In this document: in pieces, positions 41,875 through 50,647 of the stretch
How positions within the stretch are numbered: position 1 is the first letter of the stretch
Layout of the letters: every line of letters begins with the position of its first letter
Sequence record: PZ445489.1
Length of the DNA stretch: 64,000 nucleotides
Reading direction: 5' to 3' (one strand)
Origin: a phage
Notes under the pieces: generated by a model
Seen by the model: the letters and a program-made list of their open reading frames with translations, nothing else
Told to the model about the DNA's origin: nothing
Database searches by the model: none
Position numbers and translations under genes: made by a program

Positions 41875-42117
41875 TTACGATTCCTTGAGCAGAGAAGAAA
41901 GTTCAGCATATACTTTATCTAACTCAAACCCTATGCGAAGGGATACGTTAGTCCTCCGTTGTTTAAGTAACCATTCGGATATGTTAGGGATGCCAGCTAA
42001 TCTGTGTGGTACCACCCTACATAGCTTTTCCGAAGTATCATAAACAGGAACTTTACGTTCTTTTACTGGAAACTTCCTTGTTTCCCATTTTTTATTCTTC
42101 ACTGTCATTTCTAGCAC
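41875..42117 (-). CDS. Hypothetical protein
   Basis: 80 aa ORF; overlaps stop region of large ATPase gene. Confidence 0.35.
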   Translation of the reverse strand: MLEMTVKNKKWETRKFPVKERKVPVYDTSEKLCRVVPHRLAGIPNISEWLLKQRRTNVSLRIGFELDKVYAELSSLLKES

Positions 42118-44881
42118 CTAGCTCTGACATTGCTTCATCATGCATATGTTTTTCCTCGTCAGTCATGAACTTATAAGGAATTGGCATACACTCGATTTTA
42201 CAATAGGTTCTGTACCAGTCTACAATATTTTCAGTGTTCATATCCTTACCAATACCCATCATACCAAGATACATTCTTGCATATTTTGGGTTAGCACTCT
42301 GACCTGTTTTAAGGAAGAAATCTTTCTTCTTACCTTTCAGAGCTTCTATGAATGGTTTGATAGTGACATTTGAACACTTCTTAATATCTTCCCAGAACAT
42401 CTCGTGCATTTTATGGAAGAATGCCGCTCGATCATTCGGTTTATCCTTGATATACTGTTCAACATGCTCAACTGTTACATCTTTAATAGACTCAAGATGA
42501 TAATAGCGAACAAGAAGTAGTTTAGCTTCATACGCATCCGCATGACGTGGAGCACAATAATCCGGAGTTGAATGTAGAATAGCTTTGATTCGCTCTTCTG
42601 TGTATTCTTTACCAGCACCTTCAATAGTTCCCCAGCTTTCGCTGAAAATATCAATAGTTGCACCCTGATCAAGCAAGTAATAACGTAAAGTACTAGTATA
42701 GTTCCTAGATTCCAGCTCTCTGCGACGTGCGTATAATTGCTGTGCTAACTCCGGCCAACCTTCATCAATATTATATTGCTCAGAACCTGCAGAGAACCCA
42801 CTAGTGGATTTATCAATAAAATAATAGATATTCTGAGCACCACGGTCGCGCCTGATTGCTTGGAAACGCATGTTTGGCGCTTGGTTACTAGTTCTAGTGA
42901 TAACGAATACGTTATCAAAATAGTTGAAGTCAACACCACTCGTTACGGATGGACTACATAATAAGCAATCAATTTGTTGATCAATTAGCTCATTAGTTGT
43001 GTAATCCAGAATACGTCTAATATCTACATCAGATGTAGAGTTTGAGTGGATTTCCTTAACTAACGCACCCGTATTACGACGCAATGCCATGCCCTTCTCA
43101 TTCAGTTCATCTGGACCACAGTCAGATACTAGGATAGATTTCTCACCCATCTCTAGAGAAGTCTGAAGTGCAACCCAAATACTGGACTCATCAGGGAACT
43201 CATAAGCATGAGCTTTTGACAGCATTTTACGGTGATGATTGTAAAATGCAACCGGTTTATCAAACTCAATCAAAGAACCATATGCTTCAATTGTTTCTGC
43301 ACTAATATCCCCATCAGATAATATAATGATTTTTGCAGTTGCAAGAATGTCCCGAAGAACCTGAATACATTCACGACGTTGTTTAACAACCGGGGCGAAT
43401 AATAGGTCATTCATTACAGCGTCACATTCATCGATAAAGATTGCATCAATTTGACCAATAAAACTCTTGAACTTATGCAAAGAGTGAATAGTTGTGGACA
43501 TACGGTCAATAGCACCACGCTTAAAATTAAGCATATCTACAGACTTATCATATTGTCCTGCACTAAATTTCTTAGCATTTGAAGATACCAGTGCTCGAGT
43601 ATTGGTAATTGCTAAGAAATTACCTTTAATAACTCCTGAATCCAGCCAACGCACAACCGCTGTAGTTTTACCTGTACCTAGACTTGCTTTTACAAAAGTC
43701 ATATAACCTTCTGGTGGCACGGTATTTAATTTCAAGAAGTTATCAGTTTCTAGAGAATTAGTTTCTAGCTTTTTAAGTGGAATACCTTTTAAAACATCTG
43801 GTATATCACGTTTAGAATTATTAACAAACGCTTTCAGAGCCTGTTTACGACCGTTGTTAAAATAATCTTGAATATTACGACTATTATCTTTAGTTGCAAT
43901 ATACTCAGATAAAGCTGGGCGGATCTCCTTCTCTAGCCAGCCAAAATCTACACCATCCTCTAGTGCTCGGTGATAGAGTTTAGGAATAATACGTAGATAT
44001 ACACCATCCTCAGCTTCTTCTAATTCGCTGATAGTTTCCTCTACTTTATCAGAGGCAGCTTTTTTACCTTTAATTTGGTCGAGTAAAGAATAGAACTCCT
44101 CCTTAAACTCACCTCTAGTTGTTTCATAGTCAACTAGATTATTAGGTAAATTTACTTTTGAGCCTTTAACAAATACCAGACGTGAAGTACCCTCCGCTTT
44201 AAACGGATCTACTATACCATCAGTAAATAAAGGATCTGCAAAGTAATGGAGCTGTACGGAAGAGTAATAAGCTAAGTCGGCAATATCAAAGCCATACTTT
44301 TGTCTACTACTTTCGTTGATAGATGTAAATAAGAACTTGATTTGACCCTGAGTTACTTTAACATTAGATTCTAGTATTAAGTGCATTCGGATACCTGGTT
44401 TTAGCCCAGCCGAAGATGACGCATGAGCGATAAACCCTGCATCAAGAGGAAACATATCCTCACTAATACTATTTAACATCCTAATAATATGTCGAGCCAT
44501 GCCAACAAGATCAAACTTGTTACAACCTCCTGTATCTACAATACCATCCACATCCATTGCGATTATATGACTTGGATTAGATACATTAAAGTTGCCCTTC
44601 TTACGTCGCACATTATTTTTAGGTGCAAGACATCGACCTCGTACCGCAACGATATGAGGGTCAGACGTTAAACGTCTCATAAGAGGAAGCATTTCTACTA
44701 GGGTTTGAGGATCAACTTCATCAATTACATCAAACTTGAAGGGCATTGAAGCTGGTTTACCTTCAGGATGCTTTGAGGAAAATCTTTTAGCAAAAAGATA
44801 ATCTTCTGCTTTAACTTCTCGCCAATTGCCTGTGGCTAAATCGCGATGAAATCCTGCATGACCTTGTAGGATTGAAAACAC
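42092..44881 (-). CDS. Large replication-associated ATPase/helicase (origin-binding-protein-like)
   Basis: Walker A ASLGTGKTT and Walker B AIFIDECD; start placed at GTG with AGGAG 7 nt upstream (track gives TTG at 44959). Confidence 0.6.
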   Translation of the reverse strand: MFSILQGHAGFHRDLATGNWREVKAEDYLFAKRFSSKHPEGKPASMPFKFDVIDEVDPQTLVEMLPLMRRLTSDPHIVAVRGRCLAPKNNVRRKKGNFNVSNPSHIIAMDVDGIVDTGGCNKFDLVGMARHIIRMLNSISEDMFPLDAGFIAHASSSAGLKPGIRMHLILESNVKVTQGQIKFLFTSINESSRQKYGFDIADLAYYSSVQLHYFADPLFTDGIVDPFKAEGTSRLVFVKGSKVNLPNNLVDYETTRGEFKEEFYSLLDQIKGKKAASDKVEETISELEEAEDGVYLRIIPKLYHRALEDGVDFGWLEKEIRPALSEYIATKDNSRNIQDYFNNGRKQALKAFVNNSKRDIPDVLKGIPLKKLETNSLETDNFLKLNTVPPEGYMTFVKASLGTGKTTAVVRWLDSGVIKGNFLAITNTRALVSSNAKKFSAGQYDKSVDMLNFKRGAIDRMSTTIHSLHKFKSFIGQIDAIFIDECDAVMNDLLFAPVVKQRRECIQVLRDILATAKIIILSDGDISAETIEAYGSLIEFDKPVAFYNHHRKMLSKAHAYEFPDESSIWVALQTSLEMGEKSILVSDCGPDELNEKGMALRRNTGALVKEIHSNSTSDVDIRRILDYTTNELIDQQIDCLLCSPSVTSGVDFNYFDNVFVITRTSNQAPNMRFQAIRRDRGAQNIYYFIDKSTSGFSAGSEQYNIDEGWPELAQQLYARRRELESRNYTSTLRYYLLDQGATIDIFSESWGTIEGAGKEYTEERIKAILHSTPDYCAPRHADAYEAKLLLVRYYHLESIKDVTVEHVEQYIKDKPNDRAAFFHKMHEMFWEDIKKCSNVTIKPFIEALKGKKKDFFLKTGQSANPKYARMYLGMMGIGKDMNTENIVDWYRTYCKIECMPIPYKFMTDEEKHMHDEAMSELGARNDSEE

Positions 44882-45380
44882 AACAATACTCCTGTATTGG
44901 AAATGAAATAAGTTTTCTTTAGGACTATTCAGAAAGAATAGAACAACTGTTACTGTCAATTTCTCAACAAATTAATCGCAAATACTGAAGGGGGGTGGCA
45001 ACTTCCCCTTTCACGCTACACTGCCGCTTCACTATACCGCACAAATCCTTGAGGATGGCCGCTAAGCCAGATTTGCTCACCTAATGCTTCATGTACTAGC
45101 TCATACTAGATGTAGTATACCTTACGTCATCACTTCTCAGAGTTTTTCACTCTTCCCGTCTCACTTCACAACCACCTCACACTAGGTTGCTTCGAGGCCT
45201 TACCAGGGTTCCTACGGGATGTAGATCGCTAAGTATTCTATTAACTATTTGTTTAAAAACTAACACGTAACAGTTAAAACAACCCTTAATGGGGCAGCCT
45301 AACTGTTCCGTATCGCGGATTGTAAACAAGAAAAATTAGCAAAATCAATTTTTACTAATGTCTCTCAATTCAATATAAAT

Positions 45381-45409
45381 ATTATATCAAGATTTTGGGC
45401 ATCATGCAA
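45381..45409 (-). promoter_or_regulatory. Early promoter driving a ~400-nt ORF-free transcript region
   Basis: TTGCAT-17 nt-TATAAT with conserved downstream box; no start codon or RBS follows for ~480 nt. Confidence 0.55.
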
Positions 45410-45449
45410 GTAAAATTTTCCGGATGGTGCTATCATTGGTCTTGAGTAC

Positions 45450-45478
45450 GGATAAAACCGAGCCAAAATGACTCGGTT
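45450..45478 (-). terminator. Rho-independent terminator at end of Sir2-containing operon
   Basis: ACCGAG-loop-CTCGGT hairpin followed by TTTTA on - strand. Confidence 0.6.
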
Positions 45479-45485
45479 ATGTGGA

Positions 45486-45683
45486 TTAGACACTTAAAAT
45501 ACTTCTAATCTCTTCTATATACTTATCTACTTTTTTAGCATCTACTTTATTTAGTTTTCCTATATCAAAACTAGGATCAGTAAACATTCTAGCTATCTCT
45601 ATCTCTAGAGACTTACTAATTTTCCCTGTAGTATTCCACTTAGAAATCTTACCTTTTATTTTCCAAAATTCCTTATTCATCAT
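45486..45683 (-). CDS. Hypothetical small protein
   Basis: 65 aa, Lys-rich; last ORF of the operon. Confidence 0.4.
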   Translation of the reverse strand: MMNKEFWKIKGKISKWNTTGKISKSLEIEIARMFTDPSFDIGKLNKVDAKKVDKYIEEIRSILSV

Positions 45684-46065
45684 TTAATCCCGGAACATAT
45701 ATCCCAACACGGTTTAATTGTTCTTTAGCTTCTTTGAGAATATCTGGAGTGTACTCCCAAATATCATCTTCCACCTGTAAAAGATGGGGCGAACAACCAT
45801 CATCAGGCACACGACATATGGCAAAACCACGTGGATGGAACAAAGAGAAATTTAGTGCAACAATTAAACCCATAGCAGACAATTCATTCCAATCCAATTC
45901 CCATTCCCCAGCGTAGCCTGATAGGCAAACACCAATACAGGGATCGTCTATTTGCTGCTCCGGAAAAGTGAAGGAGACTTGTCTTACTCCCAACCAACGT
46001 TGTAGCAGCTTCTCCGCACGTTTCACCAAACTAGGGTCAATCTGACGCCAATATACTTGTTCCAT
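45673..46065 (-). CDS. Hypothetical protein, paralog of 46075..46503
   Basis: 130 aa; shares PCIG, W-EL-EMGL-ALN-LF-P and Y-PGL blocks with the adjacent ORF. Confidence 0.5.
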   Translation of the reverse strand: MEQVYWRQIDPSLVKRAEKLLQRWLGVRQVSFTFPEQQIDDPCIGVCLSGYAGEWELDWNELSAMGLIVALNFSLFHPRGFAICRVPDDGCSPHLLQVEDDIWEYTPDILKEAKEQLNRVGIYVPGLNDE

Positions 46066-46074
46066 TCTGCCTCC

Positions 46075-46503
46075 TTAAGCAGTTAAACCTGGGATCATAT
46101 ACCCGAAACGTCGAAGTTTCTGAATCCCCTCATTTACTTCTTCCGGTGAGTAAGACCAACCATAACGTTCATTAACCTGAAAACCAGGAGATTCACTAGT
46201 TTTATAGTTAACAACGAGGCGATGCTTAGCAGGCATAAACAGCTTATAGTTTAACGCAAAAACTAAGCCCATTTCATCTAACTCTTTCCAGCCAACAATT
46301 TCTTCAAGACCATCTTCTACCTGCACAATTAAACCAATACAGGGGGCCTCATCAATATCATCTTTAAAAGCAAAGGAGATTTCATTATTCTCACACCATA
46401 TTTTCAGAGCATTAATAGCCTCATTGTACAGGTTGGCTGGAAGAGTATGCCAAAAATTAACCAATATTGGGTTAGCTTCTTTAGAGAATACATTATTGAA
46501 CAT
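46075..46503 (-). CDS. Hypothetical protein, paralog of 45673..46065
   Basis: 142 aa; same conserved blocks as neighbour, tandem arrangement. Confidence 0.5.
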   Translation of the reverse strand: MFNNVFSKEANPILVNFWHTLPANLYNEAINALKIWCENNEISFAFKDDIDEAPCIGLIVQVEDGLEEIVGWKELDEMGLVFALNYKLFMPAKHRLVVNYKTSESPGFQVNERYGWSYSPEEVNEGIQKLRRFGYMIPGLTA

Positions 46504-46505
46504 AT

Positions 46506-47012
46506 TTACACCTTAAATTGTTGTAAGGATTTACACATTTCAAGATCTGGGCTAAATTCTAGCATATAGCTAACAGCTTTTAAATCTTGAAGATTTATTC
46601 CAGTTCTACCATTGACTATAACTGTTGGATACTGATACATCATAGCACCAGCGTCATCCAGTACACACCAATGTTTGAGCTTATGCTTTTCAACGAAGCG
46701 AAGAACAGAATTACCCCTAGATAGCCCACCACCAGTAAAATCCGTTGTACCAAGAAAACGATCGATAAGACCTAATCCGGTCATAATCTGAACGTTCTCC
46801 ATCTCATTCCTGACAGAGAACCATGAGGATACTCCAACAATCATTATCGGAGAAGGACGAATAAAGTCCTGAAAAGCCTTGAGAAGCGGTTTGAAAACCC
46901 AGTCACTTCCAAAGAAAATCTTTTCATCATCAGGTGCATGATGGTGGGAGATGCTCGAATTGAGCACCCCATCAATGTCTAGAAAAATAATTGGAGTATT
47001 ACTTATTTCCAT
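46506..47012 (-). CDS. HAD-superfamily phosphatase-like protein
   Basis: 168 aa; N-terminal FLDIDGVLN (DxDxV nucleophile motif) and later acidic LDDAG segment. Confidence 0.55.
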   Translation of the reverse strand: MEISNTPIIFLDIDGVLNSSISHHHAPDDEKIFFGSDWVFKPLLKAFQDFIRPSPIMIVGVSSWFSVRNEMENVQIMTGLGLIDRFLGTTDFTGGGLSRGNSVLRFVEKHKLKHWCVLDDAGAMMYQYPTVIVNGRTGINLQDLKAVSYMLEFSPDLEMCKSLQQFKV

Positions 47013-47181
47013 TTTTGTTCCTTTCTAAGAACGTATCATACTCAACCGTATTCACATATATAACACCATAGTCATCGGATTTATAGTCCATTTCCCACAA
47101 CTCACAGCGATAGTACCAACTACCGTCCGCCCATACAAATATATCATCAGGGTGTGTATACACAGATTTAATTATGGACAT
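46999..47181 (-). CDS. Hypothetical small protein
   Basis: 60 aa ORF with overlapping start/stop coupling inside the operon. Confidence 0.35.
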   Translation of the reverse strand: MSIIKSVYTHPDDIFVWADGSWYYRCELWEMDYKSDDYGVIYVNTVEYDTFLERNKNGNK

Positions 47182-47996
47182 ATTTGTTTCCCTGGCATAT
47201 AAGGTCTACCCTCTAGATGAGCTTCTACACGAGCAATAAAATCAGGGTCACTAAAAGCATCTACCGCACCTTTACTCCAGTAAGGAATACCACGATCTTC
47301 CAACTGGTACATCTCACTACGAGTCATACCTTGATAGCCCGGTTCTGCCGCTAGGGCACTATCGTAGTAGTTAACTACCATTAATTTGGCAGCAGTCAAA
47401 TTAAGAACAGGAAATAATTCCCAGTAGAAGTTAATTACTTGGTTAGAACAACCAACCACAATGATCATATCTTGACTGGTAATATCATCAAAAACATTGT
47501 ACATTTCTGTATATGCTGGAGCATGCTCACCAAAGAAGATTACATTAGGTTTAACCCATTTATAATCATCTGGGTCAATAGAGCTATACCCAACATCAAT
47601 AATTCGTTTATTACTACTATTGTAGCTGTCAGCTACAACAACCTCTTTTAAATATCCGTGAATGTGCAGAATGTCACTATGTGGAACGCCAGCACGTTCA
47701 ATAAGGTCATCAACATTGGTAGTCAAGTTTACTACTTGACCTGGATATTGTTTATACCATTCACCAATACGCAAATGTGCAAGATTGGGTTCAACAGTTT
47801 TTAGCTCTTCACGACGCTTGTTGTAAAACATATGGGTTTTATGATAAAAATTACCACGAAAGGCATGAATATTACATACTTCTTCTAGATTATAATCATC
47901 CCACAATGCTTTACCACTAGCAGTATCAGTACGAAAAGCTCGTACACCACTTTCAACACTCAAACCCGCACCGCTAATAATAATTAATCTACGCAT
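47172..47996 (-). CDS. Sir2 (sirtuin)-family NAD-utilising protein lacking zinc-ribbon cysteines
   Basis: 274 aa; GAGLSVESGVRAFR, LTTNVDDLIERAG, catalytic-type HG, VIFFGE and IVVGCS motifs; no CxxC pairs. Confidence 0.65.
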   Translation of the reverse strand: MRRLIIISGAGLSVESGVRAFRTDTASGKALWDDYNLEEVCNIHAFRGNFYHKTHMFYNKRREELKTVEPNLAHLRIGEWYKQYPGQVVNLTTNVDDLIERAGVPHSDILHIHGYLKEVVVADSYNSSNKRIIDVGYSSIDPDDYKWVKPNVIFFGEHAPAYTEMYNVFDDITSQDMIIVVGCSNQVINFYWELFPVLNLTAAKLMVVNYYDSALAAEPGYQGMTRSEMYQLEDRGIPYWSKGAVDAFSDPDFIARVEAHLEGRPYMPGKQICP

Positions 47997-48210
47997 TTTT
48001 CACCTGTTCTCTGAAGTTTTGCCCAATACTGTCTAATAGCTCAGCTAATTCTTTATTGCCTTTCTCCATTAAGGTGTTAGCAATAACTTCTAGCATAGTA
48101 GCGCAGGATTCAACCCCATCCTTATAGCCAGTTTCCCAGTGCTGCATTAATGCGTTTTCCAAAGCGGCGTTTAAACCCTTATCTGGTAGCATCGGCTTCG
48201 AGAATGCCAT
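47989..48210 (-). CDS. Hypothetical small protein
   Basis: 73 aa ORF, translationally coupled. Confidence 0.4.
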   Translation of the reverse strand: MAFSKPMLPDKGLNAALENALMQHWETGYKDGVESCATMLEVIANTLMEKGNKELAELLDSIGQNFREQVKNA

Positions 48211-48382
48211 AAAGTTTCTCCTCTAGTTCCATAACACGATTTTCATAAGAGGCACGCAACTTTTCAATTGCCAGTGCACGCACTGTAACCTCATTAGAAT
48301 TAATAGCTAACTGGGCCAGATCTTCTGTTTCCATACGTCCGTTGTAAATTAAGCGATATTTAAGATGTTTTACGTTTTTCAT
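48179..48382 (-). CDS. Hypothetical small protein
   Basis: 67 aa ORF. Confidence 0.4.
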   Translation of the reverse strand: MKNVKHLKYRLIYNGRMETEDLAQLAINSNEVTVRALAIEKLRASYENRVMELEEKLYGILEADATR

Positions 48383-48391
48383 TCTTGTTCC

Positions 48392-48673
48392 TTAGTTCTG
48401 TACTGTAAATTCATTCTTATCACAGTGAGCATAATAATACCCATACATACGATAAATTTTCACAGCCTTAGTAGACCCCTTCGATTCTTCATAATCAATC
48501 CAGAGCCACTTGTCTTTACCTACATAATGTACCCGAAACTTCTTAGCTTTCTTATCATTCCATGTTGCAACAACACGACGATAATCAAATCCGCCCAACC
48601 AATCTAGAGCCTTACGTTCTTCACTAGGCTCTCCAAGATGGGAGACATCTACTTTAGGAAGCAATTCGCTCAT
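48392..48673 (-). CDS. Hypothetical protein (first gene after strong early promoter)
   Basis: 93 aa; GGAGAAAGCT RBS and promoter directly upstream. Confidence 0.5.
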   Translation of the reverse strand: MSELLPKVDVSHLGEPSEERKALDWLGGFDYRRVVATWNDKKAKKFRVHYVGKDKWLWIDYEESKGSTKAVKIYRMYGYYYAHCDKNEFTVQN

Positions 48674-48691
48674 AGCTTTCTCCTCTCAAAT

Positions 48692-48720
48692 TTATAAATC
48701 TATTATATATAAATTTTTGG
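48692..48720 (-). promoter_or_regulatory. Strong early promoter, near-duplicate of the N25-type promoter
   Basis: TTGCTTTCAGCCAAAAATTTATATATAATAGATTTATAAATTTGAGAGGAG on - strand. Confidence 0.75.
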
Positions 48721-48772
48721 CTGAAAGCAAATAAAATAAAAGCCAGGTCGACTAGCAACCCGGCTGATTAGC

Positions 48773-50647
48773 TTACTTAGCTCGAATATCCTGATGCTTC
48801 ACTCTACCCATCACCTCGTGCTGTTTGCCAGGGTTAAATGGACGAGCACCCGGATTTCCAAGATACCCACAAACTCGACGAGTTACTTCAAGAGTTTCGG
48901 GGTCATGATTACCACAGATAGGACACTTAAACCCATCTTCGGATGCTATTGTTTCACCTAAGAATCCGCATTTACCGCAAGAATCCACTGGAGTATTAAT
49001 ACCGAAGTAATGAACTTTACTAGCAGCATAATTAATAACCCATTCCAGTGCATCTGGGAATCGTTTCATATCCGGTAGTTCTACATAGGAAATGCACCCA
49101 CCAGAAGCAATAGGCGTAAAGTTAGATTCATAATCAAATTTCACGTTAGGAGCAACTTTACGCTCTACATCAAGGTGGTGCGAGTTAGTGTAGTATCCTT
49201 TAGACAGAATATCTTCATGCTCTGGGAAATATTCACGGTCTAAACGGCAAAACCTATCACATAGGGACTCTGACGGTGTAGCATACAGGCTATAACCTAA
49301 CTTAGTCTCTTCCTTCTTCTGATCGACTCTATCTCGCATGTACTGCAATACACGCTGAACAAACTTGATGCAGGTCTCTGACATTGTGTCTACATCTTTG
49401 CCAAACATGAACTGTAGCATTTCATGGCAACCAATATACCCTAGAGATACAGAAGCACGGTTATAGAAATGATCGAATACATATTCATCAGGCTCCAAGC
49501 GTAACCCAAAGGCTCCTGACATATAGAGGATGGGTGCAGCTTTAGCTTGGATGTATTTTAAGCGATCAACTCTCCACTCCAATGCTTTTAACGCTGTATC
49601 CACACGTAGCTCAAGCAAATCAAAGAATAGATCAATATTTCCTTCAGCTTCGATAGCAATTCTAGGCAAGTTTACAGAAACAACACCTAAGTTATTACGG
49701 CCAGCAGTTTCACCATCTTCTGCAGCAGCTAGGAATGAACGGCAGCCCATAGAAACTTTATAGTCTCCAGTAACTTCTACAACCTTGTCATAGCTGATAT
49801 AATCTGGATACATACGTTCAGCAGTACATTTCATAGCTAACTTCTTGATGTCATAATTAACATCTCCTGGTTTCATATTTACGCCATCGCGAAGTACAAA
49901 TACCAGTTTCGGGAAGATAGCTGTACGTTTATTGATACCTAAACCATCCATGCGTACTTTCAGTATTGCTTTCTGTACTAGACGTGCTTCCCAGGAAGTT
50001 CCTAGACCAAAACCAAAGGTAATAAATGGACTCTGACCATTAGAGTTGAACATGGTATTGATTTCATATTCTAAACCCTGACAAGCGTCATAGACTTCTT
50101 TTTCAGTCATCTCCGTAGCCATTACTGATGCTTTGGCTTCATCCTTAGTCCAACGTTTTGCAAACGCATGATTTTTGTCATAGGATTTACGAACATAAGG
50201 GGCTAATACTTCATCAAGGCGATCTACAGAAGTACCACCGTACTGATGGGAGCTAACCTGAGTGATAATCTGAGCAGTAATAGCCGCCGCAGTAGTGATA
50301 GAGTTTGGAGTGCTAATTTCAGCATTACCAACCTTCATACCATTCTTCAACATATCTTCCAAAGCTACCAGACAACAGTTAGTCATGCCTAATGCAGCAT
50401 AATCAGCATCGTGGAAATGAATATCCCCAATCATATGAGCATTTCGAATCTGAATAGGCATTTCTTCTAGAATTAGATACTTACTCAATTCACCTGCAAG
50501 CATATCCCTTTGTGTAGGGAAACGTTCTGAGGGTTTATTGGCATTATTAAACAGCAGCTCTTCATCTGCTGACCCTTCGATAATCTCTTTGCAGTTTCTA
50601 ATTAACGCCTGCATTTCTTTATACTTTAGTTCTTCATTACGATTCAT
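48773..50647 (-). CDS. nrdD: Anaerobic ribonucleoside-triphosphate reductase (class III)
   Basis: 624 aa; C-terminal glycyl-radical motif RVCGYLG and zinc-ribbon cysteines CGKCGF...CPICG. Confidence 0.9.
   Translation of the reverse strand: MNRNEELKYKEMQALIRNCKEIIEGSADEELLFNNANKPSERFPTQRDMLAGELSKYLILEEMPIQIRNAHMIGDIHFHDADYAALGMTNCCLVALEDMLKNGMKVGNAEISTPNSITTAAAITAQIITQVSSHQYGGTSVDRLDEVLAPYVRKSYDKNHAFAKRWTKDEAKASVMATEMTEKEVYDACQGLEYEINTMFNSNGQSPFITFGFGLGTSWEARLVQKAILKVRMDGLGINKRTAIFPKLVFVLRDGVNMKPGDVNYDIKKLAMKCTAERMYPDYISYDKVVEVTGDYKVSMGCRSFLAAAEDGETAGRNNLGVVSVNLPRIAIEAEGNIDLFFDLLELRVDTALKALEWRVDRLKYIQAKAAPILYMSGAFGLRLEPDEYVFDHFYNRASVSLGYIGCHEMLQFMFGKDVDTMSETCIKFVQRVLQYMRDRVDQKKEETKLGYSLYATPSESLCDRFCRLDREYFPEHEDILSKGYYTNSHHLDVERKVAPNVKFDYESNFTPIASGGCISYVELPDMKRFPDALEWVINYAASKVHYFGINTPVDSCGKCGFLGETIASEDGFKCPICGNHDPETLEVTRRVCGYLGNPGARPFNPGKQHEVMGRVKHQDIRAK

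Follow-up and report, generated by a model that had tools for sequence, protein, structure and literature searches.

Tandem two-module DUF7415 proteins in a T5-like phage: an old duplication in which one module of four keeps the family motif

Two small, adjacent reading frames on the minus strand of a T5-like phage raise the question of whether they are copies of one gene and, if so, what such a pair of proteins might do. They lie in a 64,000-nucleotide (nt) stretch of sequence record PZ445489.1 (hereafter, the window), which over this region is 96% identical to phage NBSal005 and is matched by 433 T5-like phage records. An initial annotation of this DNA had read the two open reading frames (ORFs), of 130 and 142 amino acids (aa), as tandem paralogues that have since diverged. 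Both ORFs are real, with the boundaries and orientation listed in Table 1, and we refer to the 130-aa protein as A and to the 142-aa protein, whose gene lies upstream, as B. Judged by their sequences, A and B are best explained as functional early genes that arose long ago by tandem duplication from a gene encoding two copies of one module, that of the family DUF7415.

The two proteins align at 31% identity over 124 residues, with a single gap (BLASTP, E = 1e-20). The conserved blocks that the initial annotation had placed at matching positions (PCIG, W-EL-EMGL-ALN-LF-P, and Y-PGL) are borne out by this alignment, in which they appear as PCIG, W.EL..MGL..ALN..LF.P, W.Y.P, and PGL at corresponding positions of A and B. 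The comparison with shuffled sequences, singled out beforehand as the result that could overturn the claim of duplication, gave a Smith-Waterman score of 165 for the pair, far above the scores of 2000 shuffles (27.5 ± 4.6, with a maximum of 58; z = 29.8). A tandem duplication followed by divergence is thus well supported, and the duplication is, in addition, old. The pair is also widespread among T5-like genomes, where its presence had been proposed as a check: A and B each occur at full length in 523 phage records, many sequenced T5-like phages encode proteins 93 to 96% identical to them, and orthologues of both exist in T5-like phages of Klebsiella.

What the earlier reading overlooked is that each protein is built from two DUF7415 modules, that both belong to established families, and that the two differ in how far they retain the canonical form of the module. 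The Pfam model of DUF7415 (PF24187; 53 positions, with a gathering cutoff of 27 bits) scores 110.6 bits against the whole of A and 115.3 bits against the whole of B, matching each of them twice, and the 134-position profile of PHROG 2502 aligns end to end with both (A, E = 1.2e-61 over 4-134; B, E = 6.5e-62 over 2-134). Every half, scanned singly, passes the PF24187 cutoff by itself (scores in Table 1), and the locus therefore carries four DUF7415 modules. A and B thereby fall within PF24187 and PHROG 2502 (the two-module form, PHROG 3954 being the single-module form), all of which are families of unknown function; what goes beyond these entries is the presence of two modules per protein and two paralogous genes, with one canonical module among the four. 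Beyond DUF7415, neither protein has a sequence match in Pfam, NCBIfam, PADLOC, or the PDB, and PADLOC matches none of the nine proteins of the operon, A and B included.

The case for an internal duplication, by which the N- and C-terminal modules of each protein would descend from a common module, draws on the Pfam model, a weak profile signal, and the matching order of secondary-structure elements in predicted models. A hidden Markov model (HMM) built from the C-terminal modules does not detect the N-terminal halves, and direct comparison of the two halves as an internal repeat is not significant (z between 0.4 and 2.0). Profile-profile comparison (hhalign) of the N-terminal halves with 137 independent single modules yields a marginal P value of 0.035, in the expected register.

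The age of the duplication that separated A from B can be read from its distribution. Klebsiella T5-like phages, such as Roth37, likewise have a B-type gene followed downstream by an A-type gene; the Roth37 upstream product scores 75 bits against B and the downstream product 80 bits against A, as against 31 bits between the two Roth37 proteins themselves, and the tree agrees. Reciprocal best hits accordingly run across genomes and not within a genome. Because similarity between genomes exceeds that within genomes, the duplication is older than the split between the Escherichia/Salmonella and the Klebsiella T5-like phages. Bacteriophage Eos also carries both genes. In Pectobacterium phage DU_PP_V and Serratia phage Slocum, the slot between the Sir2 gene and the T5.108-like gene is occupied by one two-module gene. 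The best explanation of the pair is that the ancestral gene already encoded two DUF7415 modules when it was duplicated.

AlphaFold models of both proteins are confident and share the order of their secondary-structure elements. The model of A has a predicted local distance difference test score (pLDDT) of 95.3 and a predicted template-modeling score (pTM) of 0.88; that of B has a pLDDT of 88 and a pTM of 0.83, its first 11 residues being disordered. Each half, in both models, runs from a tryptophan through a helix into a beta-hairpin. Foldseek searches of viral models return other DUF7415 proteins only, and searches of the PDB return no match to A or B by sequence and no clear match by fold; the fold is without a clear solved relative. 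There is a weak resemblance, of uncertain significance, to AcrIC4 (PDB 8dfo_M), a 57-aa anti-CRISPR protein.

The four modules of the locus are not equivalent. A motif, [DN]WN..S..GL...IN.E.LHP.GLA..R....G.S......DG.W.Y, is near-invariant over 137 independent representatives of the family, in which the asparagine column is conserved at 100%, glycine and serine both at 99%, the histidine at 96%, and the arginine at 80%. The C-terminal module of A is the sole one of the four to display the full motif (W59, N60, S63, G66, L67, N72, H77, P78, G80, A82, R85, G90, and S92). At near-invariant family positions, the C-terminal module of B departs from that of A by histidine to methionine, glycine to lysine, alanine to arginine, arginine to valine, and glycine to serine, five canonical residues that are replaced in all B-type proteins, and both N-terminal modules lack the canonical motif. 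The single-copy lineages, represented by Slocum and DU_PP_V, retain it, and among the genomes examined no B-type gene occurs without an adjacent A-type gene. The degenerate stretch of B is still modeled at a pLDDT of ~94 to 97; because B models confidently across the region in which these residues were lost, the fold does not depend on the canonical residues, and the models make it more likely that they form a functional site.

Both genes evolve under constraint. The ratio of nonsynonymous to synonymous substitution rates (dN/dS) is 0.06 to 0.15 for B and 0.13 to 0.32 for A, values which indicate that both are under purifying selection and that B is the more conserved protein. Within A, a cassette comprising the beta-hairpin of the N-terminal module and the linker that follows is hypervariable: the proportion of nonsynonymous differences (pN) between cassette allele types is 0.37 to 0.50, versus 0.11 to 0.16 elsewhere in A, with synonymous sites saturated. 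Alleles of A and B reassort among genomes, as in one locus (L006) that combines the B of phage SP_Thor (dN 0.012) with the A of phage STWB21 (dN 0.027). Since alleles reassort in this manner, there is no co-evolution between the A cassette and B, and, judging from these alleles, the cassette probably faces something other than B.

The wider family is small. HMMER searches of 1.84 billion cluster representatives recover 153 DUF7415 clusters at E values up to 1e-3, most of which consist of proteins of ~70 to 110 aa with a single module corresponding to the C-terminal half; standing by itself, the module makes a protein of ~75 aa. A scan of 185,579 genomes (one genome per species, with two narrow peptide patterns) found seven loci only, six in Gammaproteobacteria and one in a metagenome-assembled genome (MAG) of Bacteroidales. 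Overall, the family occurs almost exclusively in phages and prophages, and its spread is patchy across unrelated phage types (T5-like, T4-like, and P2-like).

Members outside the T5-like phages are repeatedly tied to enzymes of nucleotide metabolism. DUF7415 is found fused to a dATP/dGTP pyrophosphohydrolase (PF04447), to thymidylate kinase, or to DUF3850/ASCH, and fusions with DUF3850 exist in both orders (P0169; phrog_1812), the two domains also being encoded by neighboring genes in P2-like prophages. In the T4-like Klebsiella phage KP179 (locus L003, 3995-4213), a 72-aa single-module gene lies between nrdD and nrdG and overlaps both, a placement that is repeated in many Jiaodavirus records, and a single-module gene of phage Roth22 is close to a nudix hydrolase gene. 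The commonest neighbor in IMG/VR is the P2-type replication gene A (Phage_GPA), present at 10 of 39 dereplicated loci and usually immediately upstream; further neighbors are DNA methyltransferases, NUDIX, GmrSD_N, ribonucleotide reductase, and DUF3850, along with integrases, Rep3_N, and REP_ORF2-G2P. (The IMG/VR locus search was run with a 10-sequence alignment, a 53-sequence alignment being too diverse; it returned no loci for the representatives P0052, P0063, and P0054, in whose place GenBank phages were used.) In all Demerecviridae examined, the DUF7415 gene or genes lie between Sir2 and the T5.108-like replication protein. Together, the fusions and neighborhoods suggest a place for the family in phage nucleotide and DNA metabolism, and from them we infer that a nucleotide-like ligand or a conserved protein of DNA metabolism is the most plausible target.

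How might the pair function? Our preferred reading, held tentatively and considered somewhat less likely than not to be right, is that A and B act jointly as non-enzymatic binding proteins, with the canonical module of A engaging a conserved target and B serving as its partner. A and B would form a hetero-oligomer in which the canonical module of A may bind the target shared by the family, either a nucleotide-like ligand or a conserved protein of DNA or nucleotide metabolism; B, the degenerate copy, would play a structural or regulatory part, and the hypervariable hairpin of A could contact a second, variable partner. The hypervariable cassette and the lack of any enzyme-like feature in A and B fit a binding role. 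What we infer here is that A associates with B, that the pair binds and does not catalyze, and what kind of target it has. Several observations weigh against this joint binding role. The conserved residues could be structural in canonical modules and be compensated for in B. The free reassortment of B alleles with cassette alleles of A indicates that at least the variable part of A is not co-evolving with B. The homology of N- and C-terminal modules leans on the Pfam model and shared secondary-structure order, the independent hhalign comparison being marginal (P = 0.035). The neighborhoods are heterogeneous (methyltransferases, NUDIX, GmrSD, integrases), as expected of an accessory or moron-type gene, and they identify no partner. 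Finally, we found no paper on DUF7415, T5.105 to T5.107, or the protein accessions, and nothing of use on P2 orf91; no member of the family is addressed by a paper or an experiment, and a proteogenomic study of phage phiR2-01 does not mention g097 to g099.

The reading that comes closest to joint binding is one of counter-defense or host takeover, in which the module neutralizes a conserved bacterial protein or acts as a "sponge" that sequesters an immune signaling nucleotide, with the hairpin of A as an arms-race surface. It would account for small, early, non-enzymatic proteins in a family almost restricted to phages and prophages, for their patchy occurrence over T5-like, T4-like, and P2-like phages, and for a cassette in A that is both hypervariable and reassorting. 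The position of the gene in P2-like prophages (the slot that follows gene A, next to the tin/old exclusion locus), the frequency of DNA methyltransferases among its neighbors, and the weak resemblance to AcrIC4 are likewise in keeping with it. However, the canonical motif is 50 to 60% identical across very different phages, which argues for a highly conserved and not a fast-evolving target, and covalent fusion to nucleotide enzymes is untypical of defense inhibitors. Moreover, no known anti-defense family is matched, and the single GenBank label of "acb1" is unsupported. The suggestion of the initial annotation that such proteins often bind host targets may hold for A and B, but the fusions and neighborhoods speak for nucleotide and DNA metabolism no less than for host takeover. 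We regard counter-defense as possible but doubtful, noting that it overlaps with joint binding insofar as both treat DUF7415 as a binding module. A role as accessory factors of the replication initiator (gpA in P2-like phages, the T5.108-like origin-binding helicase in T5-like ones), such as the recruitment or modulation of a host replication protein, seems improbable. Its appeal lies in position: the gene or genes are directly upstream of the T5.108-like gene in all Demerecviridae genomes examined, Phage_GPA is the commonest neighbor of single-module members and mostly abuts them upstream, and Rep3_N and REP_ORF2-G2P are among the other neighbors. In T5-like phages, though, the pair is cut off from the replication gene by a terminator and a leader of roughly 500 nt, such that they do not share a transcript; T4-like phages have the module between nrdD and nrdG or close to a nudix hydrolase gene; and the proteins to which it is fused are enzymes of nucleotide metabolism, with no replication protein among them.

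Near-identical records label DUF7415 proteins variously as exonuclease, Phage exonuclease (ACLAME 70), tail tube protein, tail protein, putative tail protein, or anti-CBASS protein acb1. That any of these GenBank labels is right, making A and B an exonuclease, a tail or tail tube protein, or Acb1, is hardly credible, as the labels are all that speaks for it and they disagree between near-identical records. No nuclease, tail, or 2H-phosphoesterase family is matched in Pfam (at E up to 1) or NCBIfam, PHROGs 2502 and 3954 are listed under unknown function, and the PDB offers no match by sequence and no clear one by fold. More specifically, A and B have no recognizable nuclease domain, fold, or catalytic motif; as for tail tube proteins, no tail family is matched and the genes reside in an early nucleotide-metabolism operon, outside the late structural region. 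The Acb1 label fares no better: the 85-aa protein of Roth22 has matches in PHROGs 3954, 33705, 2502, and 1812 alone, none of which has an assigned function, and proteins near-identical to this single-module protein are annotated as hypothetical.

Extending joint binding to the family as a whole, we propose, as a conjecture that we consider rather unlikely to hold in full, that DUF7415 is a previously unrecognized binding module of ~55 residues in phages of Gammaproteobacteria with a conserved His/Arg/Ser/Asn site. The module would capture either a nucleotide-type ligand (from the deoxynucleoside triphosphate pool or from immune signaling) or a conserved host hub of DNA metabolism, and it would be used alone, fused to a nucleotide enzyme, or, in T5-like phages, as a four-module A-B heteromer with one live site and a hairpin that tracks a fast-evolving second partner. 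What was already known of these genes is that they are two conserved hypothetical early genes, present in the T5 annotation since that phage was sequenced, and that they belong to a curated DUF family. To this, we add the nesting of modules two by two, an age for the duplication, the division between a live and a degenerate copy, the hypervariable cassette, the fusion partners, and a correction of labels. With no clear solved relative of the fold, a small and phage-restricted family, and a live paralogue set beside a degenerate one, the pair makes a tidy and testable case, and its repeated fusion to nucleotide enzymes elsewhere in the family hints at which assays to choose. Were the module to bind a nucleotide or a conserved host hub, a function would follow for genes in hundreds of T5-, T4-, and P2-like phages, and misleading database labels would be corrected as well.

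Table 1. Features of the DUF7415 locus and its surroundings, in window coordinates
Feature	Coordinates	Strand	Remarks
ORF A, 130 aa, A-type two-module DUF7415 protein	45673..46065	-	T5.107 orthologue; canonical motif kept
A N-terminal DUF7415 module, residues 3-53	45907..46059	-	N-terminal half alone, 60.2 bits
A C-terminal DUF7415 module, residues 58-98	45772..45894	-	C-terminal half alone, 52.5 bits
A hypervariable cassette, residues 27-57 (N-module beta-hairpin + linker)	45895..45987	-	Several allele types, indels
B-A spacer, 9 nt, GGAGGCAGA	46066..46074	-	Contains GGAGG, Shine-Dalgarno for A
ORF B, 142 aa, B-type two-module DUF7415 protein	46075..46503	-	T5.106 orthologue; C-terminal module motif degenerate
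B N-terminal DUF7415 module, residues 15-62	46318..46461	-	N-terminal half alone, 64.0 bits
B C-terminal DUF7415 module, residues 72-112	46168..46290	-	C-terminal half alone, 52.0 bits
HAD_SAK_2 phosphatase-family gene, upstream in operon	46506..47012	-	T5.105 orthologue; Pfam PF18143, 73 bits
Sir2-family gene, farther upstream in operon	47172..47996	-	T5.102 orthologue; Pfam SIR2, 90 bits
65-aa ORF, last operon gene	45486..45683	-	phrog_29527, unknown function; 11-nt overlap with end of A
Intrinsic terminator closing the operon	45456..45478	-	10-bp stem then UUUUAU; RNA fold -14.3 kcal/mol, z = -3.8
Non-coding leader, ~570 nt, from terminator to likely start of T5.108 orthologue	44879-45455		T5 counterpart: promoter and ~470-nt untranslated stretch
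T5.108 orthologue, 955-aa mechanical ORF call with TTG start	42092-44959	-	Annotated as "replication origin binding" protein or helicase

A and B form part of a tightly packed early operon (Sir2-HAD-nrd) that lies upstream of the replication gene resembling T5.108 (Table 1). On the minus strand, its order is three small ORFs, Sir2, a 60-aa ORF, HAD_SAK_2, B, A, the 65-aa ORF, and the terminator. The HAD gene ends with a stop codon 2 nt ahead of the start of B, and the 9- to 10-nt spacing between B and A recurs in T5, SP_Thor, STWB21, and phiR2-01. Phage T5 itself has the same arrangement of Sir2, small ORFs, HAD, B, A, terminator, and T5.108, in which T5.106 and T5.107 (YP_006934 and YP_006935), both annotated as hypothetical protein in the T5 record, are equal in length to their counterparts in the window and differ from them by a dN of 0.02 to 0.03. 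T5 differs in lacking the 65-aa ORF that the window phage has between A and the terminator; among eight genomes compared, this ORF is present only in the window and in ESCO30 and is missing from T5, L006, SP_Thor, STWB21, phiR2-01, Roth37, and DU_PP_V. An annotated terminator is located at the equivalent site of the T5 record, and the position of the leader corresponds there to a promoter and a ~470-nt untranslated stretch. Scanning 44500-48900 against Rfam gave no credible match, in the leader or elsewhere; the leader contains short repeats only, and ARAGORN found no tRNA gene, and hence no tRNA cluster, in the window (1-64000).

Two arrangements suggested by this layout were considered and dropped. 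In both the window phage and T5, B and A are in one reading frame, separated by a TAA codon and 9 nt (46066-46077); programmed read-through of the stop codon from B into A was rejected because the frame relation is not conserved, the spacer being 10 nt in STWB21. An obligatory HAD-B-A triad was rejected as well: the HAD gene occurs in all Markadamsvirinae genomes sampled and is missing from Klebsiella phage Roth37, Pectobacterium phage DU_PP_V, and Serratia phage Slocum, and HAD is thus not an obligatory partner. The Sir2 gene lies upstream of the DUF7415 gene or genes in T5, phiR2-01, Roth37, Slocum, and Eos.

A parallel to the T5-like locus exists in P2, whose Orf91 (locus L086, 5317-5646) belongs to DUF3850 (PUA/ASCH-like), lies beside tin/old, and overlaps replication gene A at its end. 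Many P2-like prophages have a single-module DUF7415 gene in or adjoining the Orf91 slot, and the T5 record mentions similarity of T5.106 to an "ORF91." P2 Orf91, however, is not a DUF7415 protein, and the T5-like proteins are without the DUF3850 part; DUF3850 is likewise a family of unknown function.

Several database entries near the locus are irregular. The T5.108 orthologue has a sub-threshold match to CyRepA1, a plasmid replication family (120.8 bits, versus a cutoff of 200), and the 955-aa call for it is probably over-extended, as orthologues are annotated at 928 to 929 aa. PF18143, the Pfam family of the HAD protein, is the HAD domain of the "Swiss Army Knife" RNA-repair type. T5.105 in RefSeq, phiR2-01, and PHROG 18062 nonetheless name this protein "Sir2 (NAD-dependent deacetylase)," a label that looks carried over from the genuine Sir2 gene nearby. 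Partial proteins that are 89 to 94% identical to B (P0019, P0025, and P0023) have been deposited under Enterococcus faecalis and Salmonella assemblies, and a few T5-like records bear the names of Listeria or Campylobacter phages; such host names and deposits look like contamination or mislabeling, not real host range.

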